The notes beneath the pieces are model-generated. The model was not told the DNA's origin, did not search any database, and saw nothing but the letters and a program-made list of their open reading frames with translations. Source: an uncultured Gammaproteobacteria bacterium (lineage in GTDB: Bacteria > Patescibacteriota > Patescibacteriia > UBA9934). From it: a stretch of 64,000 bases of DNA. Of the stretch, positions 2,930 to 22,169 are shown piece by piece. The position numbers were made by a program, and so were the translations under genes. Where the stretch lies: the NCBI GenBank assembly GCA_964599455.1, contig CAZREA010000001.1:353829-417828 (forward strand), in the 5' to 3' direction. Each line of letters starts with the position of its first letter. Position 1 is the first letter of the stretch.

Positions 2930-3059
2930 TTCAGATCCCCGAGAAAATCGCTCAATCATATAAAAACAGTATAACCCAATACAAAAATCCCAGCATGTGC
3001 TGGAATTTTTAAAAGGACACATCCCACATAGCCCTGACGCTAGGAAGGGCGACGTGGGA

Positions 3060-3145
3060 TGGTGGGTTGAGAAGGATTCGAACCTTCGTAGGCGTAAGCC
3101 AGCAGATTTACAGTCTGCCCTCGTTGACCGCTTGAGTATCAACCC
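3060..3145 (-). tRNA. tRNA-Tyr (anticodon GUA), type II with long variable arm
   Basis: Reverse complement reads GGGTTGATACTCAAGCGGTCAACGAGGGCAGACTGTAAATCTGC...GGTTCGAATCCTTCTCAACCCACCA. It has a 7-bp acceptor stem, a CUGUAAA anticodon loop and an encoded CCA. Architecture closely parallels E. coli tRNA-Tyr. Confidence 0.85.
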
Positions 3146-8562: not shown

Positions 8563-8609
8563 TGGAGCCACAGACCAGGATTGAACTGGTGACCTCATCC
8601 TTACCATGG
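8563..8609 (-). pseudogene. 3' fragment of tRNA-Thr(GGU), anticodon loop through CCA (element-junction remnant)
   Basis: Reverse complement reads CCATGGTAAGGATGAGGTCACCAGTTCAATCCTGGTCTGTGGCTCCA. This matches the 3' exon of the intact tRNA at 21736..21776 with two compensatory T-stem changes. It diverges at the 11-bp core CCTTACCATGG. Confidence 0.6.
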
Positions 8610-8823: not shown

Positions 8824-9414
8824 TTAATTTTTCTTTAGAATTCTCCCAAACCAATAGGAATTCTCATATTTCTTTTCGGTCCGAAAACCAAGTCCCTGCA
8901 ATGCCTGATAAAAATCCTCTCGTCCGAACATTTCCTGATAGGGATGGTCTAAAAAGAGCTTCAGTCCCTTGCCCGGAAGGGATGAAAAGGTTTCGCGCGA
9001 AAGATCTTCGAGAATAAATGAACCTCCGGGTTTGAGTACTCGATTAATTTCCCGCAACGCTTCCCGCCAGTTCGGAATATGATGAAGGATGCCGAAGTCG
9101 AAAACAGCATCAAATGAACCTTCAACAAACGGCAGGTGTGCAACATCAGCTACGGAGAAGGAAACGTTATCGTCATCCACCCGACGCTTCGCACGAGCAA
9201 TCATGTTTTCATCAAGGTCAATTGCATACAGCTTTGCTGGCTCGAAATAGCGCCTGATAAGTTCCGTCCCCCGCCCTTGCCCGCATCCGATTTCAAGCAC
9301 CGTTTTTCCTTTTGGAAGGTCGGACATGCTTTTAAGCTTTCTGGCCTCGAACCCCTGAATAAACCCTCGAATCGGGTTATTCATAAGCCAAAACTCAACC
9401 TTGTTCATCAACAT
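8824..9414 (-). CDS. Class I SAM-dependent methyltransferase
   Basis: Contains VLEIGCGQGRGTE (motif I) and LKPGGSFIL (post-I). Confidence 0.65.
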   Translation of the reverse strand: MLMNKVEFWLMNNPIRGFIQGFEARKLKSMSDLPKGKTVLEIGCGQGRGTELIRRYFEPAKLYAIDLDENMIARAKRRVDDDNVSFSVADVAHLPFVEGSFDAVFDFGILHHIPNWREALREINRVLKPGGSFILEDLSRETFSSLPGKGLKLFLDHPYQEMFGREDFYQALQGLGFRTEKKYENSYWFGRILKKN

Positions 9415-9837: not shown

Positions 9838-10839
9838 TTAGAGAATGTTGAGTACATGAAGCGAGTTCCACACATTGAAAAGTGCCAACGCTACGACCAC
9901 AATACCCGCCGCTTTGAAGAACACGCCCTTCCACGGCTTGTTGGAGATTTCCAATGCCCCGAATGAAAGGAGCGCTAGCACAGGGAAAGTTCCAAGCGCA
10001 AATGCGAGCATGGTAAGCCCACCCGTCACAAAACTCCCCGTAGTGAGCGTGTAAACCTGCATGGATTGCGTGAAGCCGCATGGGAGGAAGAATGTGCCGA
10101 TCCCCACGAGGAACGGAGCCAGAACGTGTGAGGAACCGCTAGCGCGTACGGTATGCCGTGCAAAGACGCTGGGGAGCTTCGGTTGCAGCCGTTTGAGCGC
10201 CGGGAAGGTATCAAGCAGGTTGAGGCCCAAGATGAGCATAACGATTCCCACAGCTATTCCGAGCACCGCACTCCCCACAAGGCCGAGCTCGAATAACTTT
10301 CCTGCGCTTCCAATTGCGCCGCCAAGTACGAAGAATCCGCCGAGACGACCAACATGGAACATTGCCTGCGAGCGCCAATGTGTTTGGTTTTTGGCGGCGT
10401 TTGCTGAGAGCGACAGGACAAGTCCACCCACGACCGCCAGACACGTTGAGACGGAAGCGATGAGGCCGATCAGAACAGCCGTGCCGTAGGAGACGTTACC
10501 GGACGTAATCAGGTTAACGAGGCCGAGCTGCTGTAGCAGGAGGAAGCCGATAATAGCCGTCAGAGCTGCGGGTATGGCAATAAGAAACTCCCGATGGTTT
10601 TTTCTTTCTTTGGCGCGCTCCAGCGCAAGGCGGTAGCCGTTCCCTGAAACAAGTGTTGTCAGCTTTTCGGCGAGAACGGCAGGATCGCCGTCCAAGTCGC
10701 CAGAAACCGTCACGGCGCACATGGTGAGATCCGCCTTCACTTCTGCCACGCCTGCGTTGCCCTTGAGGGTTTCTTCAAGATAGAAGACGCAGGACGCGCA
10801 ATGCATCCCTTCTACAAAGAATGTGTGTTTACTTTGCAT
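9838..10839 (-). CDS. HMA-domain fused to DsbD_2/CcdA-like thiol-disulfide membrane transporter
   Basis: N-terminal GMHCASC heavy-metal-associated motif, then a 6-8 TM region with STCLAVVGG and FLPCGFT cysteine motifs typical of CcdA/DsbD_2. Confidence 0.55.
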
Positions 10840-13087
10840 ACGAGATTTTCTTCATCTTCAAACGAAGCGAGTTGAGTACGACCGACACGCTCGACATCGC
10901 CATCGCAAACCCTGCAAACACCGGGGAGAGCAGCCAACCCGTGAACGGGTAGAAGACACCCGCAGCAAGCGGGATGCCGATGACGTTGTAGATGAAGGCC
11001 GAGAAAAGGTTTTGACGAACCGTACGCATTGTTGCCTTGGAAAGCTCGATTGCCTGCGAGATTTTACGAATATCGCCCTTAAGAAGCGTCACGTCGCTTG
11101 TCTCGATGGAGACATCAGAACCGGTTGCCATCGCCATGCCAACATCGGCTTGAGCGAGGGCCGGTGCATCGTTTACGCCATCGCCTGCCATCGCCACAAC
11201 CTCCCCCTTGGCTTGTAACTCTTTGATAAGCGCCAGTTTTTCTTGAGGTAGAACTCCCGCAACGTAACGATCAATACGGAGTTCATCCGCAACGGCCTTT
11301 GCCGTTCCTTCATGGTCTCCGGTTGCCATCACGACCTTGATTCCCATGCCATGCAGCTTCCGCACGGCTTCCTTGGCTTCGGGCTTGATCTTGTCGGCAA
11401 CCGCGACAACGGCGAGGACCTCTTTGTCGGTTGCGAGCGCGATCAACGTTGCATTCTTGGATGACGTCTTGCCCTTTGGGAGTGTGAGACCAAGTGACTG
11501 CAAAAGGGCCGGGCCGCCAACGTAATAGGTCGTTCCATCAATGACGCCACGGATACCGCTTCCCGCGATGTTCTCGAACTCAACAACCTTTTTCTTTTTG
11601 GCGTCCTTCGCATAGGCGACGATTGCGTCCGCAAGCGGGTGCTCGGACTTTTCTTCCAAGCTCGCCATAATGGAAAGCGCATCTCCTTCGGGCAGATCTC
11701 CTATTACGGTGAAGTTTGCGACTTCCGGCTTACCCTTGGTGAGCGTTCCGGTCTTATCGATAACAAGCGTCGTGATCTTGTGCATCTTTTCAAGCACCTC
11801 GGCATTTTTAATGAGAATACCTAGCGTTGCACCCCGTCCCACACCGACCATGATCGCCGTTGGTGTTGCGAGGCCGAGCGCACAAGGACACGCAATAACA
11901 AGGACAGTCACGAATGAGGAAATGGCGAGCGGCACATTGCCCAGAAAGAGCCAAACGATAAGGGCAATGAAGGCGACGACCAACACGGCGGGAACAAAGA
12001 CACCGGAAATCTTATCTGCAAGACGCTGAATGGGTGCCTTTGACCCTTGGGCGTCGGCAACAAGAGCGATAATGTGCGCGAGGAGGGTTTCCGAGCCGAT
12101 CCCGGTCGCCTGCATCGTGAACGATCCGCTCGTGTTCATCGTTCCGGCAGAAACCTTGTCACCCGCCTTCTTTTCGACGGGGACAGGTTCGCCGGTAAGC
12201 AGGGATTCGTCGATAAATGACGCACCTTCCGCTACAACCCCGTCCACGGGGATTTTCATGCCCGGTTTTACCAACACAACGTCGCCCTTCTGTACCTGAT
12301 CAATCGAGACCGTTTGTTCTCTGCCCTCCCTAAGAACGGTTGCGGTTTTTACCTGTAGTCCCATGAGCTTTTTAATCGCGTCTCCGGTTTTTTCTTTTGC
12401 TCGGGCTTCAAAGTATTTACCAAGAGTGATCAAACCGATTACGACAATGGTCACGTCGTAGTAGGTCGCCGTAACATCGAGATACGGAGCGAGGACTTCC
12501 TCAAAAGCGGTGAGTGCAAAACTGTATAAAAACGCCGCCACCGTTCCAAGGCCGACGAGCGTATCCATGTCCGCAACACCACGGCGTAGGAACATCCAAA
12601 GACCGCGCAGGTACTGCGTCCCAGTCACGAAGAGAACATATGTCGCCATGATGGGGAGCAAGTGGTGGACGAACTCATAGACCGTTTCCGTCATCGCAGG
12701 GATGACATTAAATTTTGCGAGGATCTCCCAAACCATCATGGCTGCGGCAATAACAACCATGGGCATCGCGACGATAACCTTTTTTCGCAGAGCTCGCGCT
12801 TCTCCGTCAGAAACCGCCGCATGATCGTGCCCCTGCGTCTGATGCGATTCCGGCATTGCGTGAGCAGCGGGGTGTTCCTTAGCGTGGAGCTTGTAACCCA
12901 ATGGCTCAATTGTGCCAGAGAGCTTCTCAACATCCGTTTGGGCGGGATCGAGGGTGATTCGGGCTTCTTCCGTCGCCAAGTTCACCGAAACGTCTTTGAC
13001 GCCCTCTTGCGCCCCAAGTTTTTTCTCAATGCGGGACACGCACGAGGCGCAATGCATGCCTGAAATATGGGCAGTTATTTTCTCCAT
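10829..13087 (-). CDS. copA: Copper-translocating P1B-type ATPase
   Basis: HMA GMHCASC at the N-terminus, TM CPC motif ([12 protein letters not shown]), DKTGTLT phosphorylation site, [10 protein letters not shown] hinge. Confidence 0.9.
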
Positions 13088-13089
13088 AT

Positions 13090-13356
13090 TTATTTGCGCT
13101 TGAGTTTATAGACCTTAAGGATTTCCTCGACCGCCTTACTCTCCTTGCCGTTCTTGATTTGGTTGATGGCACAATGGCCCAAATGGCCTTCAAGCAAAAT
13201 ATCTTCAATGTTCGATAACCCCTGCTTCGCAGCAGAGGTCTGGGTGATGACATCGATACAATAGGTATCTTTTCCAATCATTTCCTGAAGACCACGAATC
13301 TGACCTTCGATGATTTTGAGCCGACGAAGTAAGCCCTTTTTGTCGCCATGTTTCAT
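13090..13356 (-). CDS. csoR: CsoR/RcnR-family copper-sensing transcriptional repressor
   Basis: About 88 aa with the C-x(n)-H-x3-C signature (YCIDV...HLGHCAI). The first ATG is at 13356; the track start at 13362 is a TTG. Confidence 0.7.
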
Positions 13357-13363
13357 ACGCAAA

Positions 13364-13389
13364 CATGATACCCCCTAGGGGGTATCATG
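13364..13389. promoter_or_regulatory. Perfect 26-bp palindrome CATGATACCCCCTAGGGGGTATCATG, candidate CsoR operator
   Basis: It lies immediately upstream of csoR-copA. The TACCC-N-GGGTA core resembles CsoR boxes described for Gram-positive copZA operators, as recalled. Confidence 0.5.
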
Positions 13390-13421
13390 TTAAGAGGCAA
13401 AGTGGATAGCGATTGTTCGGT

Positions 13422-14327
13422 TCAAAAAATAGAGTTAATGGGATTCTTTTCGATACTTGCATGAACCTGCTTTTGGTTGACTTGGGTGTAAATCATGGTG
13501 GTCGTTATTTCTTTATGACCAAGCGCCCGTTGAACGGCGAGAATATCATTGCTCCCCACATATGTTTGCGTGGCGAACGTATGACGGAACTTATGGGGTT
13601 TAATCCGTATACCCGCTCGCTCCCCAATGAGCCGAGTAAGGTGTTTGAGGCCGTTTACCGTGAACCGAGTTCGACCATGATAGGAGACCCAGAGCCAAAC
13701 TGTTTCTACTTTCCGCTTGTCTCGTTCACGCAGGTATCGCTCAAGAAGTTCACGAAGCCGAAAACACATCGGCACAGAACGTGCGGAGCGGCTTTTAGAT
13801 GTTTCGGCTCGGACGCGGATGACGCAGTTTTCCCAATCGAGATCGGTGAGCTTGAGGTTCAGGAGCTCCCCCTTCCGAAGCCCGGCCATAGCCATGACAC
13901 CGAATAAAGCTACATTACGGATACGTTCAAAGTCGGTTTTGGCGCACATGTTAACGTGGTACATGATCGTCTCCATTTCCGTTTGCGAGTAATACTCTGG
14001 CAAGTTCTTCATGAGGGGTGGAACTGGAATGGTATCGAGCGGATTCATGGCCAGATGCCCACGATTAACACACCATTTGAAGAAGGGCGCGAGGTTTTTA
14101 CGGTACGAAATGATTGTCGCTGCCTTCCAGCCACGTTCGCGTTCTCCGCGAATAAGAAACTGCCGCAAAATACCTTCCGTCAACTCGTCAGTTGTTTTGA
14201 CAGGAAATAATTTCAATAGCAGGCGAAAGCTCTCATGGTAGCTTTGCATCGTCGCATCCGAACGACGCGCGAGGGTTCCGTCCTCGCACTCGCGGATGAA
14301 CTGGTTGTGCGCCTGCTGTACATTCAC
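13422..14327 (-). CDS. Tyrosine recombinase/integrase (XerC/D-like)
   Basis: C-terminal catalytic region HKFRHTFAT...LGH...Y with R..HxxR..Y spacing. Confidence 0.8.
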   Translation of the reverse strand: MNVQQAHNQFIRECEDGTLARRSDATMQSYHESFRLLLKLFPVKTTDELTEGILRQFLIRGERERGWKAATIISYRKNLAPFFKWCVNRGHLAMNPLDTIPVPPLMKNLPEYYSQTEMETIMYHVNMCAKTDFERIRNVALFGVMAMAGLRKGELLNLKLTDLDWENCVIRVRAETSKSRSARSVPMCFRLRELLERYLRERDKRKVETVWLWVSYHGRTRFTVNGLKHLTRLIGERAGIRIKPHKFRHTFATQTYVGSNDILAVQRALGHKEITTTMIYTQVNQKQVHASIEKNPINSIF

Positions 14328-14331
14328 AAAA

Positions 14332-14670
14332 TTATTTCATTTCCCACCCGCGCTTTGCGGCAAACTCTTGGCTAATGTCATAAACCATCTGCCAGAGACG
14401 GTCGTCACCCATAAGCTCCACGATGAGCTCCTCCATTTCCGCATCTCCAATTGCAACTCCGTAGTAATCCCGGAAATGAAACCAGAAAGATTCGATAAAG
14501 TCGTACGAAAAGAATTGCTTGCGATCTGGGTGCTCCAAATACATTTGGCGATCTCGCTTTTCGGCTTTATCCGCTCTTGCAAGCATCTCTTCAAATTCTG
14601 GCTTCTCCATATGCTCAAGGGATGCCTGTACCTCCGCCTCCGTCGCCGACTGAATGTTCTCTTGGTTCAT
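14332..14670 (-). CDS. Hypothetical protein (between two recombinase genes)
   Basis: 112-aa acidic ORF, spaced 4 to 14 nt from its neighbours. Confidence 0.4.
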   Translation of the reverse strand: MNQENIQSATEAEVQASLEHMEKPEFEEMLARADKAEKRDRQMYLEHPDRKQFFSYDFIESFWFHFRDYYGVAIGDAEMEELIVELMGDDRLWQMVYDISQEFAAKRGWEMK

Positions 14671-14684
14671 ATCATTTGGGGTTA

Positions 14685-15845
14685 TTAGTTATTTGCTGAC
14701 ATTGCTTTCACGATTTGTGCGATGCGGGCTAAATCTTCCTCGCCAAGAACCGGCTTGGCCTGTAGTGATTCGGGGTCAATGCCGCTTAGCAATTCAATCT
14801 GTCGCTCCTCATCGATCTTGCCGTACCCGTACGAACCGAATGTCGTTGAAACGTGTTCGTGGCCGAGGTTTTGGCTGATTGCCTTTTTCTGCTCCTCGGT
14901 AAGCGGGATTTTCATGAACTCTTTGACGACAAGGTGACGGAATGTGTGAGGATGAAAGTACGGCACTCCGGCGGCCTTGAATCGCTTCTCAAAGATCTTT
15001 CGCGCTGAACTGCTCTTCTCCCAAAATTCTTGGTTAACCTCCCCCGAACTGTAGTAACTGACGTTTTCTTCACCTTGCTCGATTTTTGTTGCCGGGAAGA
15101 TGGGGTCGGTTGCCGCGTACCCTTTCTCGTTCACGAGATAGTCGTACCAACTGAGAAAGTATTCTTTTGGTTTGTCGTATTTGAGCGGGAAGAGGGCTGT
15201 GGTGATGCGTTTGGCGTACTTCGTTTTCACACCCAATGACGGGTCTTGATCGACAACGAGGTCGTCACGATCAAATGCACCGATGGGAAGACTGACGATT
15301 GCCGATATGCGAGCGCCTGTCAGGAGCGAGAAGGAGATCAGTGCCCTGTCTCGACGGTCAACCTCGGTTATTGGCTCGATGAACTCTATGACTGTCTGAA
15401 CCTGCTCAATCGTTGGAATTTTGCGCCGCCCGGACTGACGTGCTTGTCGGCTCTCCTTCTTTCCGAGATTCAGGAAGTCGATGTCGGTTATCTTGATGCT
15501 TTGCTTGTAGGCATCCTGCTCGGCAAGCCACCGGAAGAACGCCTTGAGCTTGCGTAGCGTGTGGTACTGGTATGACACGCTCAGCTTCTCATCCCCTGCG
15601 CCATCACGATCGGCGAGCCAACTTTTGAACTGCATGGCGTTCGCTTTGTTGAACGACCGGAAATCTTCATCGTGCGTAAATTCCTGCCAACGAAGGAGCG
15701 CCTTCTCGTAGGTCTCAATGCTGTTTTCGGCATACCCACCCGAGGCACGTTGATAATCGAAGAAGCGACGCTTCATGATCTCGTTTTGGTAACGAATTTC
15801 CTCGTGGGATTTGCCTTTGATTTTGTCTTCGATGAATTCACTCAT
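14685..15845 (-). CDS. Phage-type tyrosine integrase with N-terminal SAM-like/core-binding domain
   Basis: HPHTFRHLVVKE...LGHEHVSTTFGSYGY. 386 aa. Confidence 0.8.
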   Translation of the reverse strand: MSEFIEDKIKGKSHEEIRYQNEIMKRRFFDYQRASGGYAENSIETYEKALLRWQEFTHDEDFRSFNKANAMQFKSWLADRDGAGDEKLSVSYQYHTLRKLKAFFRWLAEQDAYKQSIKITDIDFLNLGKKESRQARQSGRRKIPTIEQVQTVIEFIEPITEVDRRDRALISFSLLTGARISAIVSLPIGAFDRDDLVVDQDPSLGVKTKYAKRITTALFPLKYDKPKEYFLSWYDYLVNEKGYAATDPIFPATKIEQGEENVSYYSSGEVNQEFWEKSSSARKIFEKRFKAAGVPYFHPHTFRHLVVKEFMKIPLTEEQKKAISQNLGHEHVSTTFGSYGYGKIDEERQIELLSGIDPESLQAKPVLGEEDLARIAQIVKAMSANN

Positions 15846-16291
15846 ATAGTCGTGTTGGGTGGTGATCGATTAATCCCTTTGGGAGATGTACGAAGGAATC
15901 GGCGCATGATCGTGTTGCAACGTCCGCAATGAGCGACATATTGCAATTGATCTTGGTTGTCTTTGCCGACTTTTTTGCCGGTCTTTTCTGTTCGTACTTC
16001 TCTGAGATCAACCCGTATCGCTTCGTGACACTTGAGGCAGTACAGCTCATCCGACTTCAGCTTCACTTCATGGCTCTTTCGCCGCTCACGCAGGAAGGCG
16101 ATCACCGTCTCGCCGTAAAAGAGCAATGGATTTGTATCTGACCTAATGGGCTGTAGACCTTCTTCAATCCATCGATAAACCGTCCCTCGGGTCGCCCCTA
16201 ATCGATCGGCGATTTCCTGTGGCGTATACGTTCGACGCTCCCTGATAATTCGGAGGTTATAGTTGCGCATAGTGGTAGAAGTTAGTTCCAC
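15842..16291 (-). CDS. Excisionase-like HTH DNA-binding protein with C-terminal zinc-ribbon
   Basis: HTH YTPQEIADRLGATRGTVYRWIEEG plus CLKCH...CGRC. The gene overlaps the integrase start by 4 nt. Confidence 0.5.
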   Translation of the reverse strand: MELTSTTMRNYNLRIIRERRTYTPQEIADRLGATRGTVYRWIEEGLQPIRSDTNPLLFYGETVIAFLRERRKSHEVKLKSDELYCLKCHEAIRVDLREVRTEKTGKKVGKDNQDQLQYVAHCGRCNTIMRRFLRTSPKGINRSPPNTTI

Positions 16292-16626
16292 CAGCTCTGC
16301 CCTAGCGCTCCCCGGATTCGACCTTTGACATCCCGAACCGTTGCCCAGAATCGTATCGGCTCCACGATGATCTCTCCCGAGAACAATTGACCCTGTATTT
16401 CCTCAAGCTCTTTAGAGGACACAAAAACTGCCACGGCACGGCGTGGGTTGATAGGATCAGATTCAAATGCCTTGATGGGGATCTCGCGGTAGGCGAGAAC
16501 ACAGATCAAAATAAACTCCGAGGTCTTGAATAGCTTCTCTTTGGATTTCATACAGTCATCTTTTTCATATTGCTTACCACCCCATTTCATCAAAAACGGA
16601 TCACTTAAAATAAGCAGAAACCCCAC
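16282..16626 (-). CDS. Hypothetical protein
   Basis: 114-aa ORF overlapping the next gene by 10 nt. No motif recognised. Confidence 0.35.
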   Translation of the reverse strand: MGFLLILSDPFLMKWGGKQYEKDDCMKSKEKLFKTSEFILICVLAYREIPIKAFESDPINPRRAVAVFVSSKELEEIQGQLFSGEIIVEPIRFWATVRDVKGRIRGALGQSWWN

Positions 16627-16697
16627 CTGCGGAATAACAAAAAAGAGCCGAATGTCCGGGCTCTTAAAAAGTTATCCCCGCTTTAAGTAGAGTTAAG

Positions 16698-17501
16698 TTA
16701 AGCAGTTTTATTTCGACGGGTTTGAAATGCTTTTTGAGTTAAGACTTCCACCGATACCTTGAAGACGACGAAATCGTAGTCCCTCCCAAGAATCTGGGTG
16801 AGCTCATGTTTTCCTTTCGTATAAAGAGGGCACCGACCGTTGGTATTGAAGTAATCCAAAGCTCCTCGAATATCTTGATGACGGAAGCGTTCGCCTTCAG
16901 CGATACGGATCAAGAGATCCCAATACTTTCCATATTTTACCGAAAATGCCCCTGCATAGTTGCCGTTCACAACCACAACTACCTCTCCCTTGCTCCGATC
17001 GGGCAAAAGACCAAGTTGTTGGATCGTTGAATTACAAATATCTTCGTCCTCGTTTTTTGTAGGTTCTCCATCATTTACGCGCCCATCGTTAAGATGTTCC
17101 GCAACCATGAGCGCGATATCCTCCTTGTCTTGCCACCCCATCCGTCGATTGGAAACAATGTACGGAAGGGTTTCTTGTTCTTCTAGGATGTTGGCATACA
17201 GGCCCCCGAATTGCGTGGGTTCGAGAACGGGCAACTGGGGAATTTTTAACACCGCAGTCGCTTGCTCGCTTACTCTCTGAAGTATTTTGTAAGAATCGAT
17301 GATTCCTGAAAAGTTTATCGCTTCAGATATTTGCGTTGCAGTTTTTTGAGCAACGGTCATCGCGCGAGCAATCTGATCAAACTGGCTTTTATGGGCATCG
17401 ACAAAATCCTGAATCACTTTCTGAGATTCAAGGTATGGCTGCATCATTTTTTTCATCTGGCTCTCAACGGCCGGGAGAGCATCTGAATCTAATTCGCTCA
17501 T
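16698..17501 (-). CDS. Hypothetical protein (element cargo)
   Basis: 267-aa ORF with no recognisable domain. Confidence 0.45.
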   Translation of the reverse strand: MSELDSDALPAVESQMKKMMQPYLESQKVIQDFVDAHKSQFDQIARAMTVAQKTATQISEAINFSGIIDSYKILQRVSEQATAVLKIPQLPVLEPTQFGGLYANILEEQETLPYIVSNRRMGWQDKEDIALMVAEHLNDGRVNDGEPTKNEDEDICNSTIQQLGLLPDRSKGEVVVVVNGNYAGAFSVKYGKYWDLLIRIAEGERFRHQDIRGALDYFNTNGRCPLYTKGKHELTQILGRDYDFVVFKVSVEVLTQKAFQTRRNKTA

Positions 17502-17639
17502 ATCGTCATCTTATCTGGGACAAAATTACCAGAAAAAACTGCACTTTTCAATTTGAAGCATGGATAAGCTTGGAGTTGCTTACCCTCAAAAAGTAAGGTA
17601 TTATCTCGGCACAACACCTAAACCCGACCAGTATGGTTG

Positions 17640-17803
17640 GGCATGGTTAAACACCTACACGACTGAGACGGTCTTCCGACTGGCACTTATTCGTGTAGGG
17701 CCCTATTCCGCAAGGATAGGGGGTTGTTGCCGAAAGGCGCAGCCGTCAGCTCGGGGGACCTTTTGAGTTTCCCGAAATCTAATTAACCCCTACACGAATA
17801 CCT
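17640..17803 (+). promoter_or_regulatory. Candidate structured 5' leader/cis-regulatory RNA with mutually exclusive pairings
   Basis: CCTACACGA (17654-17662) and CCCCTACACGA (17787-17797) can each pair with TCGTGTAGG (17691-17699). Between them are hairpins CCCTAT-UCCGCAAGG-ATAGGG and GCC-GAAA-GGC (GNRA). The second CCTACACGA ends 7 nt before the ATG at 17804. Confidence 0.3.
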
Positions 17804-18382
17804 ATGTCGCACGATACGACAGGGACCAAGAACTGGTTCGCCAGACACAAGATACTTAGCGCACTCGGAGGCCTCGTTCTCTTTTTCATAATTATTGGAG
17901 CGGTTTCAGGTGGCTCATCTGATACAAGCTCCTCAAGTGGCTCCTCTGGCTCCAATACCGGCCAACAGAACGCGCCTGCGGCTTACACGCTGAACGATCA
18001 AGTGACCGTGGGCGATGTAAAGTGGGTCGTGACCTCTGCTACGTCCAAAGCTTCGCTTGCGGGAGCGTTTGGCGGAACGGAAACCACCCAAGGAAAATTT
18101 GTGGTGATCAATGTGACTGTTGAAAATCTCGGGAAAGACATGAAAACCATGTCGAACCTAAAATTGGTCGATAGCCAAGGCCGGGAGTTTACGAGCTCTT
18201 CAAAGAGCTACAAGAACCTTGGAGCGGATCAGCTCTATATCCTACAAAACTTGAATCCCAATCTACCGTACACCTTCGCTGATGTGTACGAAGTGCCCGC
18301 CGACGCGGAGGGCTTCTCGGTAGTGGTCGGGGATCTGACCTTCTTCGGAAATAACGAAGCTAACATTGGCCTCGGTTTCTAA
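17804..18382 (+). CDS. Membrane-anchored DUF4352-like (Ig-like) domain protein
   Basis: N-terminal TM helix, Ser/Gly linker, then VGDVKWVV...GKFVVINVTVENLGKD...LKLVDSQGREF pattern resembling DUF4352. Confidence 0.45.
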   Translation: MSHDTTGTKNWFARHKILSALGGLVLFFIIIGAVSGGSSDTSSSSGSSGSNTGQQNAPAAYTLNDQVTVGDVKWVVTSATSKASLAGAFGGTETTQGKFVVINVTVENLGKDMKTMSNLKLVDSQGREFTSSSKSYKNLGADQLYILQNLNPNLPYTFADVYEVPADAEGFSVVVGDLTFFGNNEANIGLGF

Positions 18383-18400
18383 ACCGAAGTGCTCATATAG

Positions 18401-18428
18401 AAAACCTCCCAAAAAGGGAGGTTTTCTT
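18401..18428 (+). terminator. Rho-independent terminator
   Basis: AACCTCCC-AAAAA-GGGAGGTT followed by TTCTTG. Confidence 0.55.
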
Positions 18429-18460
18429 GCTGTACGAATGGCCCTCTGATTGGTAAGCTC

Positions 18461-20788
18461 ATGTCAATTATGATGACAAATGCCTCTCTGAAATACAGGC
18501 CCGTCAGGATCGGTATGCTCGTTAACGAGGGCTCGATTGACGAACTTATTGCCGCCGCAAGTTGGAACAGTATTTTGTGGGGCGGTCTTTACAACCCAGT
18601 CATTCCCTGTGGAGCTAATCAGGAATTAACGCAGAGTTTGATGGAGCTATTTTCTGTTGACGTTCTCTATGCTGTAGGGAAATCAAAAGTGATCACGAAG
18701 GTAATGAACGACCACCCTTTTTTGAGAGAGCAGAGGCATATAGAGGGTCTATTTCATGAAGAAACAGCTCCACGCACAAGAGAGCGTGTTTTAGCTCCTA
18801 CATACCTCAGTTTAAAAGACATCGCTGACTACTTCTGGTACGAAGAGATGCGGCATAAGGATTCCTCCTACAAGAGCGACTTCATCCATCATACATGGGA
18901 ACAGAATGACGATCTGAATGGGTTGATGTCGATGATGTACGGGCGCATACCAAGTGCAGGTTCAGTACCCTTCAAATACTCATTCGACAATATCTTTTTA
19001 AACGGCTTACGAGCTGATTCTTCGACGGTCAAGATTGGCGACCCAATACCTGAACAAGACAAATTTTCGATCATTCAAGCCACGCAAGCACTCCTTCGAG
19101 AACACGGGGATGGTTTCTATCGAAATGGAGGGGGTGTTTATATTGGCTCCCATACCAGTTTTAACGACCTCCTGACTTTTTGGAACTTGCGAGCTTCAGG
19201 TATTGACGTTGCATTCTTTTCGACTGACGCCACAGATAGGACGTTAGGTGCCGCAAAAACACAACTCGATCGTGTTCGTAAAAGGTCGGAGGATACAGAA
19301 ATGCCCTTTGCGGCGTACCCCACCGTCTACCATCAGATTGACGATAAGGATTCAATTGATGCTCATATAAAGCTTCTGTTTTCCGAGGAGGAGAAAAGGG
19401 TGATTCATCACGTCTCGGATCATTCTTGGAACGGTCATAACATTCGGCCCGCGACTTGTAGCTTTTCTTGGGAACAAACAAGTGGAAGTGCAAGCTTGAC
19501 GAATGAGCAGCCAAGCGTGCGTTTTCAGTTACCTCCTATGGACTTCTTACGAGGTCGCGAGGATCTTGATAGCTCAACACTTGCGGTTGATGTTGATGTC
19601 TATTTTGAAGGTGATTACGAGAAACATACCCTCAAGCCCCCATATCTTCGGGGCCTAGATGAATTTTATAGAAGGGGCATACATTTTTCGCCCTTTGGTC
19701 TGCGGGTGCATGGAGGGGGTATTTCATTGCTCGTTGAGACAAACGATCATGATATCCGCCTAAACCCACTTTCAAAAATTGAAACTGTCCACAAAATTTT
19801 TGATCTTGTGGGGCTGCGATCGAAACCAAGCCAGCCGGGTATTGTTGCGCAAAAAATCATTGATCATTTCGGTGGCCTTGAAAAGTTAAGACCCCTTAAG
19901 TTTGATGGGGTGAGAAAATTACTCGAATCCTTAGAGCCGGAAGATACAGTCACGAGGGGACGGGCGACACAAACAATCCATGAATCTAATTTGACGAGAC
20001 ACAGGTTCCTTTCTTCTGCATCAGAGGGAATCAATGCCTCAGAAGTTTTTAACGGGTTGCTCAAGCAACAAGTGTTTAGGCCGGGCTTAGAGCTTACCTG
20101 CGCGAGCTGTACGCTCACCAGCTGGTTTTCACTCGCCGAGTTGGATGACGAGTGGATTTGCAGATATTGCGCCGCAAAGGAACTTACAAGCATTCAATTA
20201 GGGAACCGGGGTGACTGGAAGTTTAGGAAGAATGGTCTCTTTGCGAGGCAAAACAAGCAGGATGGCGCAATCCCCGTCATCTTGACGTTGTTGACCCTGA
20301 ATAGGAGATTCCACGACGGGAAGTTGCTCTGGCTGACGAACACTAAACTCGACGGTGATGGGGTGGACTGCGAAAGCGATTTTGTTGCTATCGTTAAAGA
20401 TAGTAGATCGAGCAAACTAGAAATTTGTATCGGGGAGTGTAAGAGTGGAGGCGGTGAAATCAATCAAGAGGATTGCGACAAGCTAACCGCCGTCGCAGAC
20501 ACGATCAAGAAAAACGATCAGCTTGATTGTTGCATTCTCTTTGCAAAGACGGCTGAAGATTTTACGGATACTGAAAAATCCTTGTTTAAGAGTTTGATTG
20601 AAAAAGGTTACCGAATTGTTCTATTCACCAATAGGGAGCTGGAGCCCTACGAACCTTACTGGACTGACGGAAGTGGAGAAAATCTCCCACAGAAATACGC
20701 CCACTCGCTGGAGGACTTCTCGGCCAATTCACGAGCCCGGTACTTATCCGATCCTGAAGCTAGCCCACAAAATTCAACGGGTGCTTAG
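18461..20788 (+). CDS. Large uncharacterised protein with internal CxxC...CxxC zinc-ribbon and C-terminal PD-(D/E)xK-like nuclease motif
   Basis: 775 aa. CASCTLTSWFSLAELDDEWICRYCAA (zinc ribbon). C-terminal DGVDCESDFVAIVKD...LEICIGECKSGGGE gives a D...ExK pattern. No NTPase motif seen. The 3' end overlaps the convergent integrase gene by 29 nt. Confidence 0.55.
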   Translation: MSIMMTNASLKYRPVRIGMLVNEGSIDELIAAASWNSILWGGLYNPVIPCGANQELTQSLMELFSVDVLYAVGKSKVITKVMNDHPFLREQRHIEGLFHEETAPRTRERVLAPTYLSLKDIADYFWYEEMRHKDSSYKSDFIHHTWEQNDDLNGLMSMMYGRIPSAGSVPFKYSFDNIFLNGLRADSSTVKIGDPIPEQDKFSIIQATQALLREHGDGFYRNGGGVYIGSHTSFNDLLTFWNLRASGIDVAFFSTDATDRTLGAAKTQLDRVRKRSEDTEMPFAAYPTVYHQIDDKDSIDAHIKLLFSEEEKRVIHHVSDHSWNGHNIRPATCSFSWEQTSGSASLTNEQPSVRFQLPPMDFLRGREDLDSSTLAVDVDVYFEGDYEKHTLKPPYLRGLDEFYRRGIHFSPFGLRVHGGGISLLVETNDHDIRLNPLSKIETVHKIFDLVGLRSKPSQPGIVAQKIIDHFGGLEKLRPLKFDGVRKLLESLEPEDTVTRGRATQTIHESNLTRHRFLSSASEGINASEVFNGLLKQQVFRPGLELTCASCTLTSWFSLAELDDEWICRYCAAKELTSIQLGNRGDWKFRKNGLFARQNKQDGAIPVILTLLTLNRRFHDGKLLWLTNTKLDGDGVDCESDFVAIVKDSRSSKLEICIGECKSGGGEINQEDCDKLTAVADTIKKNDQLDCCILFAKTAEDFTDTEKSLFKSLIEKGYRIVLFTNRELEPYEPYWTDGSGENLPQKYAHSLEDFSANSRARYLSDPEASPQNSTGA

Positions 20789-21713
20789 TCATCTGGCCAC
20801 GCAAATGCTCAACGGAGGCCGACAGGTAGATTGTGGTGGTTTTAATGTCGTTATGCCCCAGCATCTTGGAGAGGGAGTAGATATCACAGCCGCCTTCGAT
20901 CATTAGCGTGGCGAAGGTATGTCGGAGCATGTGGATGTAGAAATCTGTCCCAGAGGCCTCAATAATGCGTTCAACGAGACGTTTAAGGCCGGAGTCGGTG
21001 AATCTCCCATCCCGATTCAAAGAAACGAAAAAGTACATGGTCACTTTGTGAAGCCGCTCTCTTTCGGAGAGGTACTTTTGAAGTATGGCAATGAGCTGAA
21101 ACGGCATAGGGACCACGCGATCTTTATTGCCCTTGCCTTGCCGAATACAGATCACCATATTCGTCAGATCCACGTCGGTCATCTTCAGCGTGAGCAATTC
21201 GGTCTTACGAAGGCCACAGTACAGAAACATGGCAAACATGGCGTGGTTGCGGTAGCGAAGAAAAGCATTCGGATACGGCAGACATGCAGCGGTTTCGATA
21301 AGCGTCAGCGCCTCCTGTTTGGTAAGGCGCTTCGGGAGGTTTTTGTCTTGTCGCGGTTTCTCGATTTGTTCAAAGGGATTGTCGATGACAAAGTTTCGCT
21401 CCTTCGCCCACTTGAAGAAGACGTTTAGTCGCTTGTGGTGGGTAATGAAGGTGCTTGGCGTCCACTTTTTTGTTGACCTCCCCCAATAGAAGAATTTTTG
21501 AGCTACCAAAAAAGACACCTCATCAATGCGCTCTACTTCAGGACATGCCTGCAAGAACGTTCTGAGTGTCTCTCGATAACTCTTTACCGTCGTAGGACGG
21601 TAATTCCTGATTGTTTCCTGATACTGACAAAAACTCTCATGGAGCTCTGCGATCTTCATATTCATCTCATTTAGAGCGGAATATGGATCGAGTATCCACT
21701 TCAGGTGGTTCAA
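20760..21713 (-). CDS. Tyrosine integrase adjacent to tRNA-Thr attachment site
   Basis: HMLRHTFATLMIEGG...LGHNDIKTTTIYL. Confidence 0.8.
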   Translation of the reverse strand: MNHLKWILDPYSALNEMNMKIAELHESFCQYQETIRNYRPTTVKSYRETLRTFLQACPEVERIDEVSFLVAQKFFYWGRSTKKWTPSTFITHHKRLNVFFKWAKERNFVIDNPFEQIEKPRQDKNLPKRLTKQEALTLIETAACLPYPNAFLRYRNHAMFAMFLYCGLRKTELLTLKMTDVDLTNMVICIRQGKGNKDRVVPMPFQLIAILQKYLSERERLHKVTMYFFVSLNRDGRFTDSGLKRLVERIIEASGTDFYIHMLRHTFATLMIEGGCDIYSLSKMLGHNDIKTTTIYLSASVEHLRGQMTKHPLNFVG

Positions 21714-21735
21714 TACGAGATTAAGCCATCTGAAG

Positions 21736-22014
21736 TGGAGCCACAGACCGGGATTGAACCGGTGACCTCATCCTTCGTTTACACCTCTGCTTTCTAGGGC
21801 ATATCAGAGGGCTAGACTGTATCTTGAGCTTTCTCTTGCGAGGGAAGCTCCCCTTGTCAGTCGTTCGGGCGTACGCTTTCGCGTTGACGCCACGGTCTTG
21901 ACCTTGCCGGGTCTTTAACCGTAATTCGGGATTCAATCCTGCATTTCTGCGAGGAGGGGCAGGAGACATTACGTCCCACCATGGATGCGCTCTACCAACT
22001 GAGCTACTGCGGCA
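21736..22014 (-). tRNA. tRNA-Thr (anticodon GGU) interrupted by a 202-nt putative group I intron after anticodon position 36
   Basis: Exons (reverse complement) GCCGCAGTAGCTCAGTTGGTAGAGCGCATCCATGGT | AAGGATGAGGTCACCGGTTCAATCCCGGTCTGTGGCTCCA join into a canonical 76-nt cloverleaf with anticodon loop AUGGUAA. The spliced sequence equals the contiguous sequence seen in the fragments at 8563..8609 and 22130..22169. Confidence 0.6.
21777..21978 (-). ncRNA. Putative group I intron in tRNA-Thr anticodon loop
   Basis: The 5' exon ends in U and the intron ends in G. There are R-like (GAACGACUGACAAGG) and S-like (CAAGAUACAGUCUAGCC) elements with a 5-bp P7 (GACUG/CAGUC). A P8-like hairpin (GAGCUU...AAGCUC) and a P9-like hairpin (CCUCUG...CAGAGG) are also present. 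No ORF inside. Confidence 0.45.
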
Positions 22015-22129
22015 TGAATTGTTTGGCTCCGACGGCCACTTCCACGGGGGATGTGGTCGTCTGATTTTTGTTTTCTTGATTTCTTCTTTTACATTAGCGT
22101 GAAACCGCGTTTCTAGGGTAGACCGCCTC

Positions 22130-22169
22130 CTTACCATGGATGCGCTCTACCAACTGAGCTACTGCGGCG
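22130..22169 (-). pseudogene. 5' fragment of tRNA-Thr(GGU), positions 1 to ~41, ending at the 11-bp core (element right junction)
   Basis: Identical over 36 nt to the 5' exon of the intact gene. Sequence upstream of the core is unrelated to tRNA. Confidence 0.55.

Follow-up and report, generated by a model that had tools for sequence, protein, structure and literature searches.

What does the 775-codon open reading frame (ORF) at 18461-20788 of the DNA analyzed here encode, and why is such a gene carried by a mobile element? The stretch in question, called the window in the following, comprises 64,000 nucleotides (positions 353,829 to 417,828, forward strand) of contig CAZREA010000001.1, which belongs to an assembly deposited as uncultured Gammaproteobacteria bacterium and placed within the Patescibacteriota by GTDB. 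A preliminary description of the window had proposed that this ORF, together with an upstream gene for a DUF4352-like membrane protein, forms a defence or element-maintenance module. Our analysis confirms the zinc ribbon and the PD-(D/E)xK domain, the location as element cargo and the unmatched N-terminus, but it does not support the two-gene module. The gene is the founding example of a large, unannotated and architecture-stable protein family, and its product is very probably a PD-(D/E)xK nuclease.

Both genes were found where they had been placed before, at 17804-18382 and 18461-20788 on the plus strand. The large ORF is a real gene, since homologs were recovered by two different searches. 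A word-indexed search yielded 51 homologs with 87% down to 21% identity, nearly all of them with a length of 750-800 amino acids (aa), and an exhaustive profile search retrieved 4,343 clusters (representatives at 50% identity) at E ≤ 1e-3 and 1,192 at E ≤ 1e-30, with matches that extend from end to end in nearly all cases. All named members are labelled "hypothetical protein", and no description of the family was found in a literature search. The 775 codons are counted from the first ATG (18461), and residues are numbered accordingly in this text. However, the coding sequence probably comprises only 18470-20788 (772 aa), because it is the ATGATG at 18470, and not the ATG at 18461, that is conserved in the relative with 87% identity. 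The public annotation starts even later, at M19 (757 aa), which trims off the invariant residues Y12 and P14.

A model of the protein, calculated with AlphaFold2 on the family alignment, has a mean predicted local distance difference test score (pLDDT) of 86.6 and a predicted template modelling score (pTM) of 0.80. According to this model, three Rossmann/toprim-like alpha/beta sub-domains form an N-terminal module (residues 1-320; 18461-19420), which is followed by an acidic beta-rich domain (residues 330-435; 19448-19765), a putatively DNA-binding helical domain (residues 439-535; 19775-20065), a zinc ribbon with the motif C547-x2-C550...C567-x2-C570 (residues 539-595; 20075-20245) and a C-terminal PD-(D/E)xK nuclease domain (residues 600-765; 20258-20755), all on the plus strand.

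Conservation was assessed in an alignment of 33 sequences with 25-87% identity to the query. The four cysteines of the ribbon are invariant in 33 of 33 sequences, as are E638, D640, E659 and K661 of the nuclease domain (DFVAIV...IGECK). The same applies to K696, E705, E726-x-E728 and Y733. The preliminary description had already pointed to the CxxC...CxxC ribbon and to a D-x(n)-E-x-K arrangement, and not a single aligned homolog has lost the putative catalytic residues. Further invariant motifs are located in the N-terminal module (Y12-x-P14, W40-G-G-x2-N45-P46, D67, D117, D150, D236 and W241-N-L-R-A245) and in the helical domain (S457, G460, R477, K480 and G483-V-R485), and T390, P394, E401, Y403 and R415 of the beta-rich domain are invariant or nearly so. 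The six regions that were scored (the N-terminal part as residues 1-215 and 222-320) are similarly conserved, with mean pairwise identities of 31-41%. The most distant branch, from Amycolatopsis (21% identity), can be aligned over 637 columns (probability 99.9%) and keeps the E-x-D, G-E-x-K and zinc-ribbon motifs. The architecture is fixed throughout the family. The sole variant seen is a protein of 945 aa (P0021; L009, 8001-10838), which possesses an extra C-terminal Ser_hydrolase domain (alpha/beta hydrolase, PF06821).

The restriction-endonuclease fold that had been suspected for the C-terminus was corroborated by the fold search together with the invariant catalytic residues. The predicted model of this domain exhibits the core alpha-beta-beta-beta-alpha-beta fold of the PD-(D/E)xK superfamily, and the D...(D/E)-x-K residues, conserved among the homologs, are located on the second and third strands. 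Foldseek leads to the same assignment, with MspJI, AF1548 and N.BspD6I matched at a probability of at least 0.96. The best structural matches include Card1, Can1, Can2 and Cdn1 (183-225 residues aligned), after which come many restriction enzymes, HamA, Upx and Holliday-junction resolvases; NucS and FAN1 were matched as well. It is the combination of these fold matches with the position of D640 (codon at 20378) and E659-x-K661 (K661 codon at 20441) on the second and third core strands that leads us to accept the protein as a nuclease. Searches on the level of sequence were far less informative: no model of Pfam, NCBIfam, PADLOC or PHROGs was matched by the 775-aa protein, a spurious match to a fimbrial protein was all that resulted from running profiles against the sequences of the PDB, and Pfam scans of the individual members yielded nothing besides noise from zinc-ribbon families, with weak matches in several members. 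No nucleoside triphosphatase (NTPase) or methylase domain was detected in the scans of the family libraries, in agreement with the preliminary description.

For the N-terminal part of the protein no family had been recognized before, and this holds true for approximately 535 residues in both sequence and fold searches. Residues 1-535 were also modelled separately (pLDDT 86.6, pTM 0.82), and a fold search was run on this part alone. CWB2 repeats of the Clostridioides difficile proteins Cwp8, Cwp6 and SlpA resemble it on the fold level only, with low Z-scores and an identity of 10-11%. In contrast to the cytoplasmic nuclease described here, CWB2 proteins are located outside the cell, where they bind polysaccharides. 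Lower matches were single lobes of periplasmic binding proteins, the Toprim domain of RecR and PTS IIA, and the beta domain matched the head of the reovirus sigma1 protein. When a profile of the first 535 residues was used for searching, all proteins retrieved shared the full architecture, so that the N-terminal module was never seen swapped onto another effector, and the members of the distant branch show no Pfam domains. The distribution of charge across the family gives some indication of how the domains might share the work. A consistently basic character was found for the helical domain only (+4.7 ± 2.2). The zinc ribbon has a slight positive charge (+1.7), the first alpha/beta sub-domain is close to neutrality (+0.3), and acidic values of -3.4 to -4.4 characterize the other two alpha/beta sub-domains as well as the beta domain. 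From this pattern we infer that the helical domain and the zinc ribbon are the parts that hold DNA and that a regulatory or sensory role, and not the binding of DNA, falls to the N-terminal module.

Within the window, the nuclease gene is cargo of an integrative element of approximately 13.2 kb at a tRNA-Thr(GGU) gene. The ends of the element are marked by direct repeats of the attachment site (att) type, which lie 13.2 kb apart, since a 40-nt copy of the tRNA 3' end (right repeat, 21736-21775) recurs at 8563-8602 (left repeat) as a displaced, intron-less tRNA-Thr 3' fragment at the far end of the element. The two copies are 95% identical, with 0 matches expected by chance. Tyrosine recombinase genes are present on both sides of the nuclease gene, which agrees with the location between recombinases that had been proposed for it.

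The family as a whole is rare and patchily distributed. We confirmed 231 loci in 185,579 species genomes (approximately 0.1%) from more than 15 phyla, with one copy per locus found. The hosts belong to the Patescibacteria, the alpha-, beta- and gamma-Proteobacteria, Acidobacteriota, Planctomycetota, Bacteroidota, Verrucomicrobiota, Thermodesulfobacteriota, Omnitrophota and others, and cultured hosts are found in Bradyrhizobium, Xanthobacter, Sphingomonas, Roseateles, Dyella and Nitrosomonas. In one Nitrosomonas strain the gene is fragmented.

Several copies were found in the company of mobile or defence genes. Family members are carried by elements with a serine recombinase and a Prim-Pol protein, by an island with a type I restriction-modification (R-M) system, GmrSD_N and PDDEXK_1, and at a locus with a ParE/RHH toxin-antitoxin pair nearby. 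On a Bradyrhizobium plasmid, the gene is part of an island with an Abi-family protein, a pair of an ATPase and an S8 peptidase, and a DUF2971 protein, and PrlF/YhaV are encoded directly upstream. Three IMG/VR contigs (L093-L095) are genuine tailed phages with portal, capsid, terminase, tape measure and endolysin genes, in which a full-length family gene is located between the lysis and the tail/baseplate modules. In L094, an ORF of 210 aa on the opposite strand lies directly upstream of the family gene, as in moron-type insertions. The gene order of the tailed-phage contigs looks P2-like, the genes for portal and terminase being oriented divergently to those for scaffold, capsid and small terminase.

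Altogether, about eight of ten inspected contexts show hallmarks of mobile genetic elements (MGEs) or defence, a count made without matched control. Among the first 148 immediate neighbours (two on either side), the most frequent Pfam families were SLFN_AlbA_2 and ResIII (4 each), N6_N4_Mtase and HATPase_c_4 (3 each), and Eco57I, Methylase_S and N6_Mtase (2 each), and an EcoRI R-M pair, a Type ISP enzyme, a KAP NTPase and an ABC-3C domain were also present. PADLOC assigned type II and type III methyltransferases, type III restriction endonucleases, PglX and mad2 among the neighbours of this first batch.

The preliminary description had also linked the nuclease to the DUF4352 gene in front of it. 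The assignment of this gene was correct: its product of 192 aa (17804-18382, plus strand) matches Pfam PF11611 over profile positions 1-117 of 122 with 47.2 bits (E = 3.3e-12), above the gathering cutoff of 25.9, and possesses a hydrophobic anchor segment at the N-terminus. In addition, it matches, at full length, a prophage family of unknown function (phrog_806, E = 2e-24). One could imagine that both proteins form a two-gene module, for instance with a surface sensor that signals to a cytoplasmic nuclease, and the two genes are indeed adjacent, on the same strand and only 78 nt apart, which holds for the window as well as for four contigs (L006-L008 and L012) of the 87% relative. However, these contigs are not independent evidence, since they carry the same element (a common block of 8.7 kb, 13424-22168 in the window, with 81% identical nucleotides), and a DUF4352 gene does not adjoin any other homolog in nine further inspected contexts and approximately 83 clustered loci. 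The pair is therefore not conserved across independent homologs. An all-versus-all clustering of the five neighbouring ORFs on either side at these approximately 83 loci did not reveal any neighbour family common to more than six of them; the largest shared cluster, a serine recombinase, occurs at exactly six.

Moreover, the two genes are separated by a terminator-like hairpin (18399-18427, plus strand) that consists of a 12-bp stem and a T-rich tail. Its folding energy amounts to -19.6 kcal/mol (z = -5.8), a value reached by 0 of 200 shuffled sequences, and it is retained in the 87% relative, which is consistent with an intrinsic terminator. A consensus scan for promoters and terminators, which returned as many hits as in shuffled sequences, missed this hairpin, which was found by direct folding, probably because the T-run lies partly inside the stem. 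In view of the shared element, the conserved hairpin and the affiliation of the DUF4352 protein with a prophage family of its own, a two-gene module is extremely improbable. Because there is no conserved neighbour, because DUF4352 occurs only within the same element and because a terminator-like hairpin intervenes, we regard the nuclease as the product of a solitary gene. The DUF4352 gene is independent cargo and not a conserved partner.

How might such a solitary nuclease be employed? We propose that the protein could act as a stand-alone, self-regulated and metal-dependent PD-(D/E)xK DNA endonuclease. The basic helical domain and the zinc ribbon would hold the DNA, and the N-terminal module of approximately 435 aa (the three Rossmann/toprim-like sub-domains plus the beta domain) would keep the nuclease off until a cue is sensed, which could be a protein of the invader, a small molecule or a DNA feature. 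Since no methyltransferase, immunity protein, NTPase or signal-making enzyme such as a cyclase accompanies the gene, the discrimination between self and non-self should be intrinsic to the one polypeptide. The occurrence of the gene as accessory cargo on many mobile DNAs and in defence islands makes single-protein immunity the most likely role, and we give a function in anti-phage or anti-MGE immunity about an even chance. The more far-reaching idea that this is the first known representative of a widespread family of single-protein immune nucleases, which extends over more than 4,000 sequence clusters from Patescibacteria to Actinobacteria and reaches into tailed prophages, and whose acidic N-terminal module is a new infection sensor that unlocks the nuclease without methyltransferase, NTPase or second messenger, is put forward tentatively, and we hold it to be somewhat less probable than its negation.

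Several observations weigh against the immunity function. Defence genes were much scarcer in the second batch, which comprised 80 neighbours, than in the first one, the census had no matched control, and some copies are situated among ordinary genes. Since the second batch was weak and the control is missing, the association of the family with defence or mobile neighbours is suggestive and not proven. The family is very rare on plasmids (2 of 72,556) and was not found in 50,697 GenBank phage genomes. None of the families in PADLOC-DB v2.0.0 was matched at E ≤ 0.1, neither by the 775-aa protein nor by the DUF4352 protein, and the search for a known defence model that had been suggested for the large protein thus ended negative; this database version dates from 2023 and includes Shedu, Hachiman and candidate systems, and later systems lie outside it. 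Finally, catalysis, the choice of DNA or RNA as substrate and a metal dependence are suggested by fold and motif only, and the designation of the N-terminal module as sensor or autoinhibitor is an analogy that, apart from this, draws on its charge.

The fold matches and the genomic contexts can also be explained in other ways. The protein might be a modification-dependent (type IV-like) restriction enzyme, in which a non-catalytic domain reads unusual phage DNA and a tethered FokI/Mrr-like domain cuts. This would agree with a solitary nuclease without methyltransferase partner, with the presence of several copies in R-M islands and with the fold comparison, in which the nuclease domain resembles FokI, MspJI, AspBHI and LlaBIII. 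MspJI itself cuts DNA in such a modification-dependent manner. The END nucleases could serve as a precedent, as they are orphan type IIS-like enzymes with a fused sensor and no methyltransferase that can restrict hypermodified phages, their specificity-determining sensor being the C-terminal domain. Nevertheless, we consider this explanation rather unlikely. Neither sequence nor fold revealed an SRA, EVE/YTH, Mrr_N, SBD or EndoIII-like reader, the acidic character of the large N-terminal and beta domains is not what one would expect of parts that read DNA, and only the helical domain of approximately 100 aa and the zinc ribbon come into consideration for contacting DNA. The non-catalytic domains also distinguish the protein from the individual enzymes: it lacks the recognition domains of FokI and the inactive EndoIII (HhH-GPD) domain, so that this part is unrelated to that of FokI-type (IIS) and END nucleases, and it differs from type IV nucleases of the Mrr_cat/AF1548/MspJI kind by having no Pfam Mrr_cat match and neither an SRA nor a winged-helix Mrr_N reader. 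A type II or IIS R-M enzyme is not indicated either, since no cognate methyltransferase is shared as a neighbour among the approximately 83 loci; DNA methylases adjoin no more than a few copies, where they belong to other R-M systems that are complete in themselves. A different possibility is that the protein serves the elements that carry it and not their hosts, be it as an addiction or exclusion nuclease or as a DNA-processing enzyme for element maintenance. Recombinases and genes for excisionase-like helix-turn-helix (HTH) proteins often adjoin the gene, and it is carried by prophages and a plasmid. However, the carriers are unrelated to each other (elements with tyrosine or serine recombinases, tailed phages, a plasmid, plain R-M islands), none of the mobility genes is conserved next to the gene and there is a single copy per locus found. 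Unrelated carriers without a conserved mobility neighbour form the pattern of interchangeable cargo and not that of a core mobility function, and the exclusion of rival elements would overlap with defence anyway. We therefore deem a service to the carrier improbable, and slightly more so than type IV-like restriction.

The prominent position of Card1, Can1, Can2 and Cdn1 among the structural matches raises the question whether the protein could be an orphan second-messenger effector, whose Rossmann-like N-terminal domains would bind a cyclic oligonucleotide, the synthesis of which is encoded at another place in the genome, and would thereby switch on the nuclease. Because the alignments with Card1, Can2 and Cdn1 are long, the N-terminal part was tested as a CARF-type ligand sensor. 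Pfam matches to CARF_Card1 (1 of 33 members, E = 0.05) and Card1_endonuc (2 of 33 members, E = 0.21) are faint and not significant, and no CARF, SAVED, TIR, SIR2 or SRA/EVE protein is among the 60 matches listed for residues 1-535. In contrast to these effectors of type III CRISPR systems, which possess a CARF domain, the protein described here shows none by sequence or fold, is twice as large and contains a beta domain, a helical domain and a zinc ribbon in addition. An association with CRISPR or cyclases was not observed, as neither Cas10 nor a cyclase is among the commonest neighbour families. A role as second-messenger effector is thus very unlikely. Even less credit, in our view, should be given to a housekeeping nuclease of DNA repair or recombination. 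The fold search did match NucS, Holliday-junction resolvases and FAN1, and some copies are located among core genes, but a gene that is present in approximately 0.1% of the species genomes, scattered over phyla without conserved context, carried on mobile elements and pseudogenised in one strain hardly fits such a role. Neither homology to a housekeeping enzyme nor a conserved non-mobile context, both of which the preliminary description had named as counter-evidence to its proposal, was found.

Single-protein immunity remains the reading that we prefer, and there are known enzymes whose logic might be similar. In FokI, the cleavage domain is sequestered by the recognition part, Shedu is gated by its N-terminal part, and in Card1 and Can2 a Rossmann-like sensor controls the nuclease. 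By analogy to these and to the END nucleases, the protein may work like the known single-protein defence enzymes that combine sensor and nuclease, without being a member of any of their families. From Shedu (SduA, DUF4263), HamA and Upx it is distinguished by the lack of a DUF4263 or PADLOC match, by a different domain composition and by the lack of a helicase partner. It is a member of the PD-(D/E)xK superfamily and represents a new large family with a structurally unmatched module of presumed sensory or regulatory function.

The other genes of the 13.2-kb element are listed here from left to right. A small-molecule methyltransferase (8824-9414) is followed by a copper-resistance cluster (9838-13391) with genes for an HMA-DsbD protein (9838-10839), a CopA-type P-type ATPase (10829-13087) and a small protein (approximately 13090-13350) that, judged by eye from the sequence only, is CsoR-like. 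A perfect 30-nt palindrome beside the latter ORF (13362-13391, AACATGATACCCCCTAGGGGGTATCATGTT) looks like its operator. The cluster lies inside the att repeats and is absent from the 87% relative, which has NUDIX genes in its place. Two tandem tyrosine recombinase genes (13422-14327 and 14685-15845, identified with Pfam/NCBIfam), a gene for an excisionase-like HTH protein with its own CxxC...CxxC zinc ribbon (15842-16291), a DUF5659 gene (16282-16626) and a gene for a protein of 267 aa without family match that is conserved only in the same element (16698-17501) are all located on the minus strand. A third tyrosine recombinase gene (20760-21713, minus strand; Phage_integrase, E = 1.8e-34) is situated next to the tRNA gene, and its 3' end overlaps convergently with that of the nuclease ORF by 29 nt (20760-20788). 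The same arrangement of three tyrosine recombinase genes, two in tandem and one by the tRNA gene, plus the excisionase-like gene is seen in the contigs of the relative.

Upstream of the DUF4352 gene, on the same strand and within an intergenic region flanked by divergent genes, we detected a LOOT RNA (Rfam RF03000; 17615-17744, plus strand) with 52.3 bits (gathering threshold 46.4; E = 8.7e-8). It is nearly identical in the relative, where the block as a whole averages 81%, and the differences within the motif are confined to one hairpin loop. A pattern search at the other 87 loci found no further copy, so that the motif was seen only in the same element. The literature provided no function for LOOT RNA, which the main text of Weinberg 2017 does not discuss.

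The tRNA-Thr(GGU) gene at the right end (22013 to 21740, minus strand) lies 27 nt from the start codon of the adjacent integrase gene. It is interrupted directly after the anticodon by approximately 200 nt and was missed by ARAGORN and Rfam. All arms of the tRNA form around the insert. The last nucleotide of the exon is a U that takes part in a P1-like helix as a U-G wobble pair, and the last one of the insert is a G. The insert shows 95% conservation in the relative, where two pairs have changed in a compensatory manner. The insert looks like a group I intron; the Rfam intron model gives no match to it. Additional tRNA-Thr fragments span 22103-22168 and 8563-8609. The former includes an exact 36-nt copy of the 5' half that ends precisely at the intron insertion site and is followed by a degenerate, intron-less remainder (22133-22168 and downstream, minus strand), and the latter is the intron-less 3' half that contains the distal att repeat. 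These fragments suggest successive integrations, possibly with the element supplying the intron-bearing 3' part. In the relative, a tRNA-Tyr homolog follows directly after the element block (L006, 11559-11648). In the window, the counterpart of this segment (3056-3145) with the tRNA-Tyr gene (3060-3145) is located 19 kb away, and a gene for a Memo-like protein and a gene for an unknown protein of 640 aa follow the block instead, which indicates a rearrangement or a further insertion at this site.

Nuclease-based candidate defence systems are common, and the present family, too, is a candidate. The family nevertheless stands out by its size, its breadth, its fixed architecture, its confident model and its testability. 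The cultured hosts named above are available for experiments. Independent of its function, several thousand "hypothetical proteins" can be annotated now as zinc-ribbon PD-(D/E)xK nucleases, and the tempting but wrong pairing with DUF4352 is corrected. To our knowledge, few defence systems besides R-M are known from bacteria of the candidate phyla radiation. If the family indeed acts in defence, a large and phylogenetically broad single-gene system that includes these bacteria would be added to the immune repertoire. The putative sensor module has no solved structural relative, and its trigger could reveal a new way of recognizing infection.

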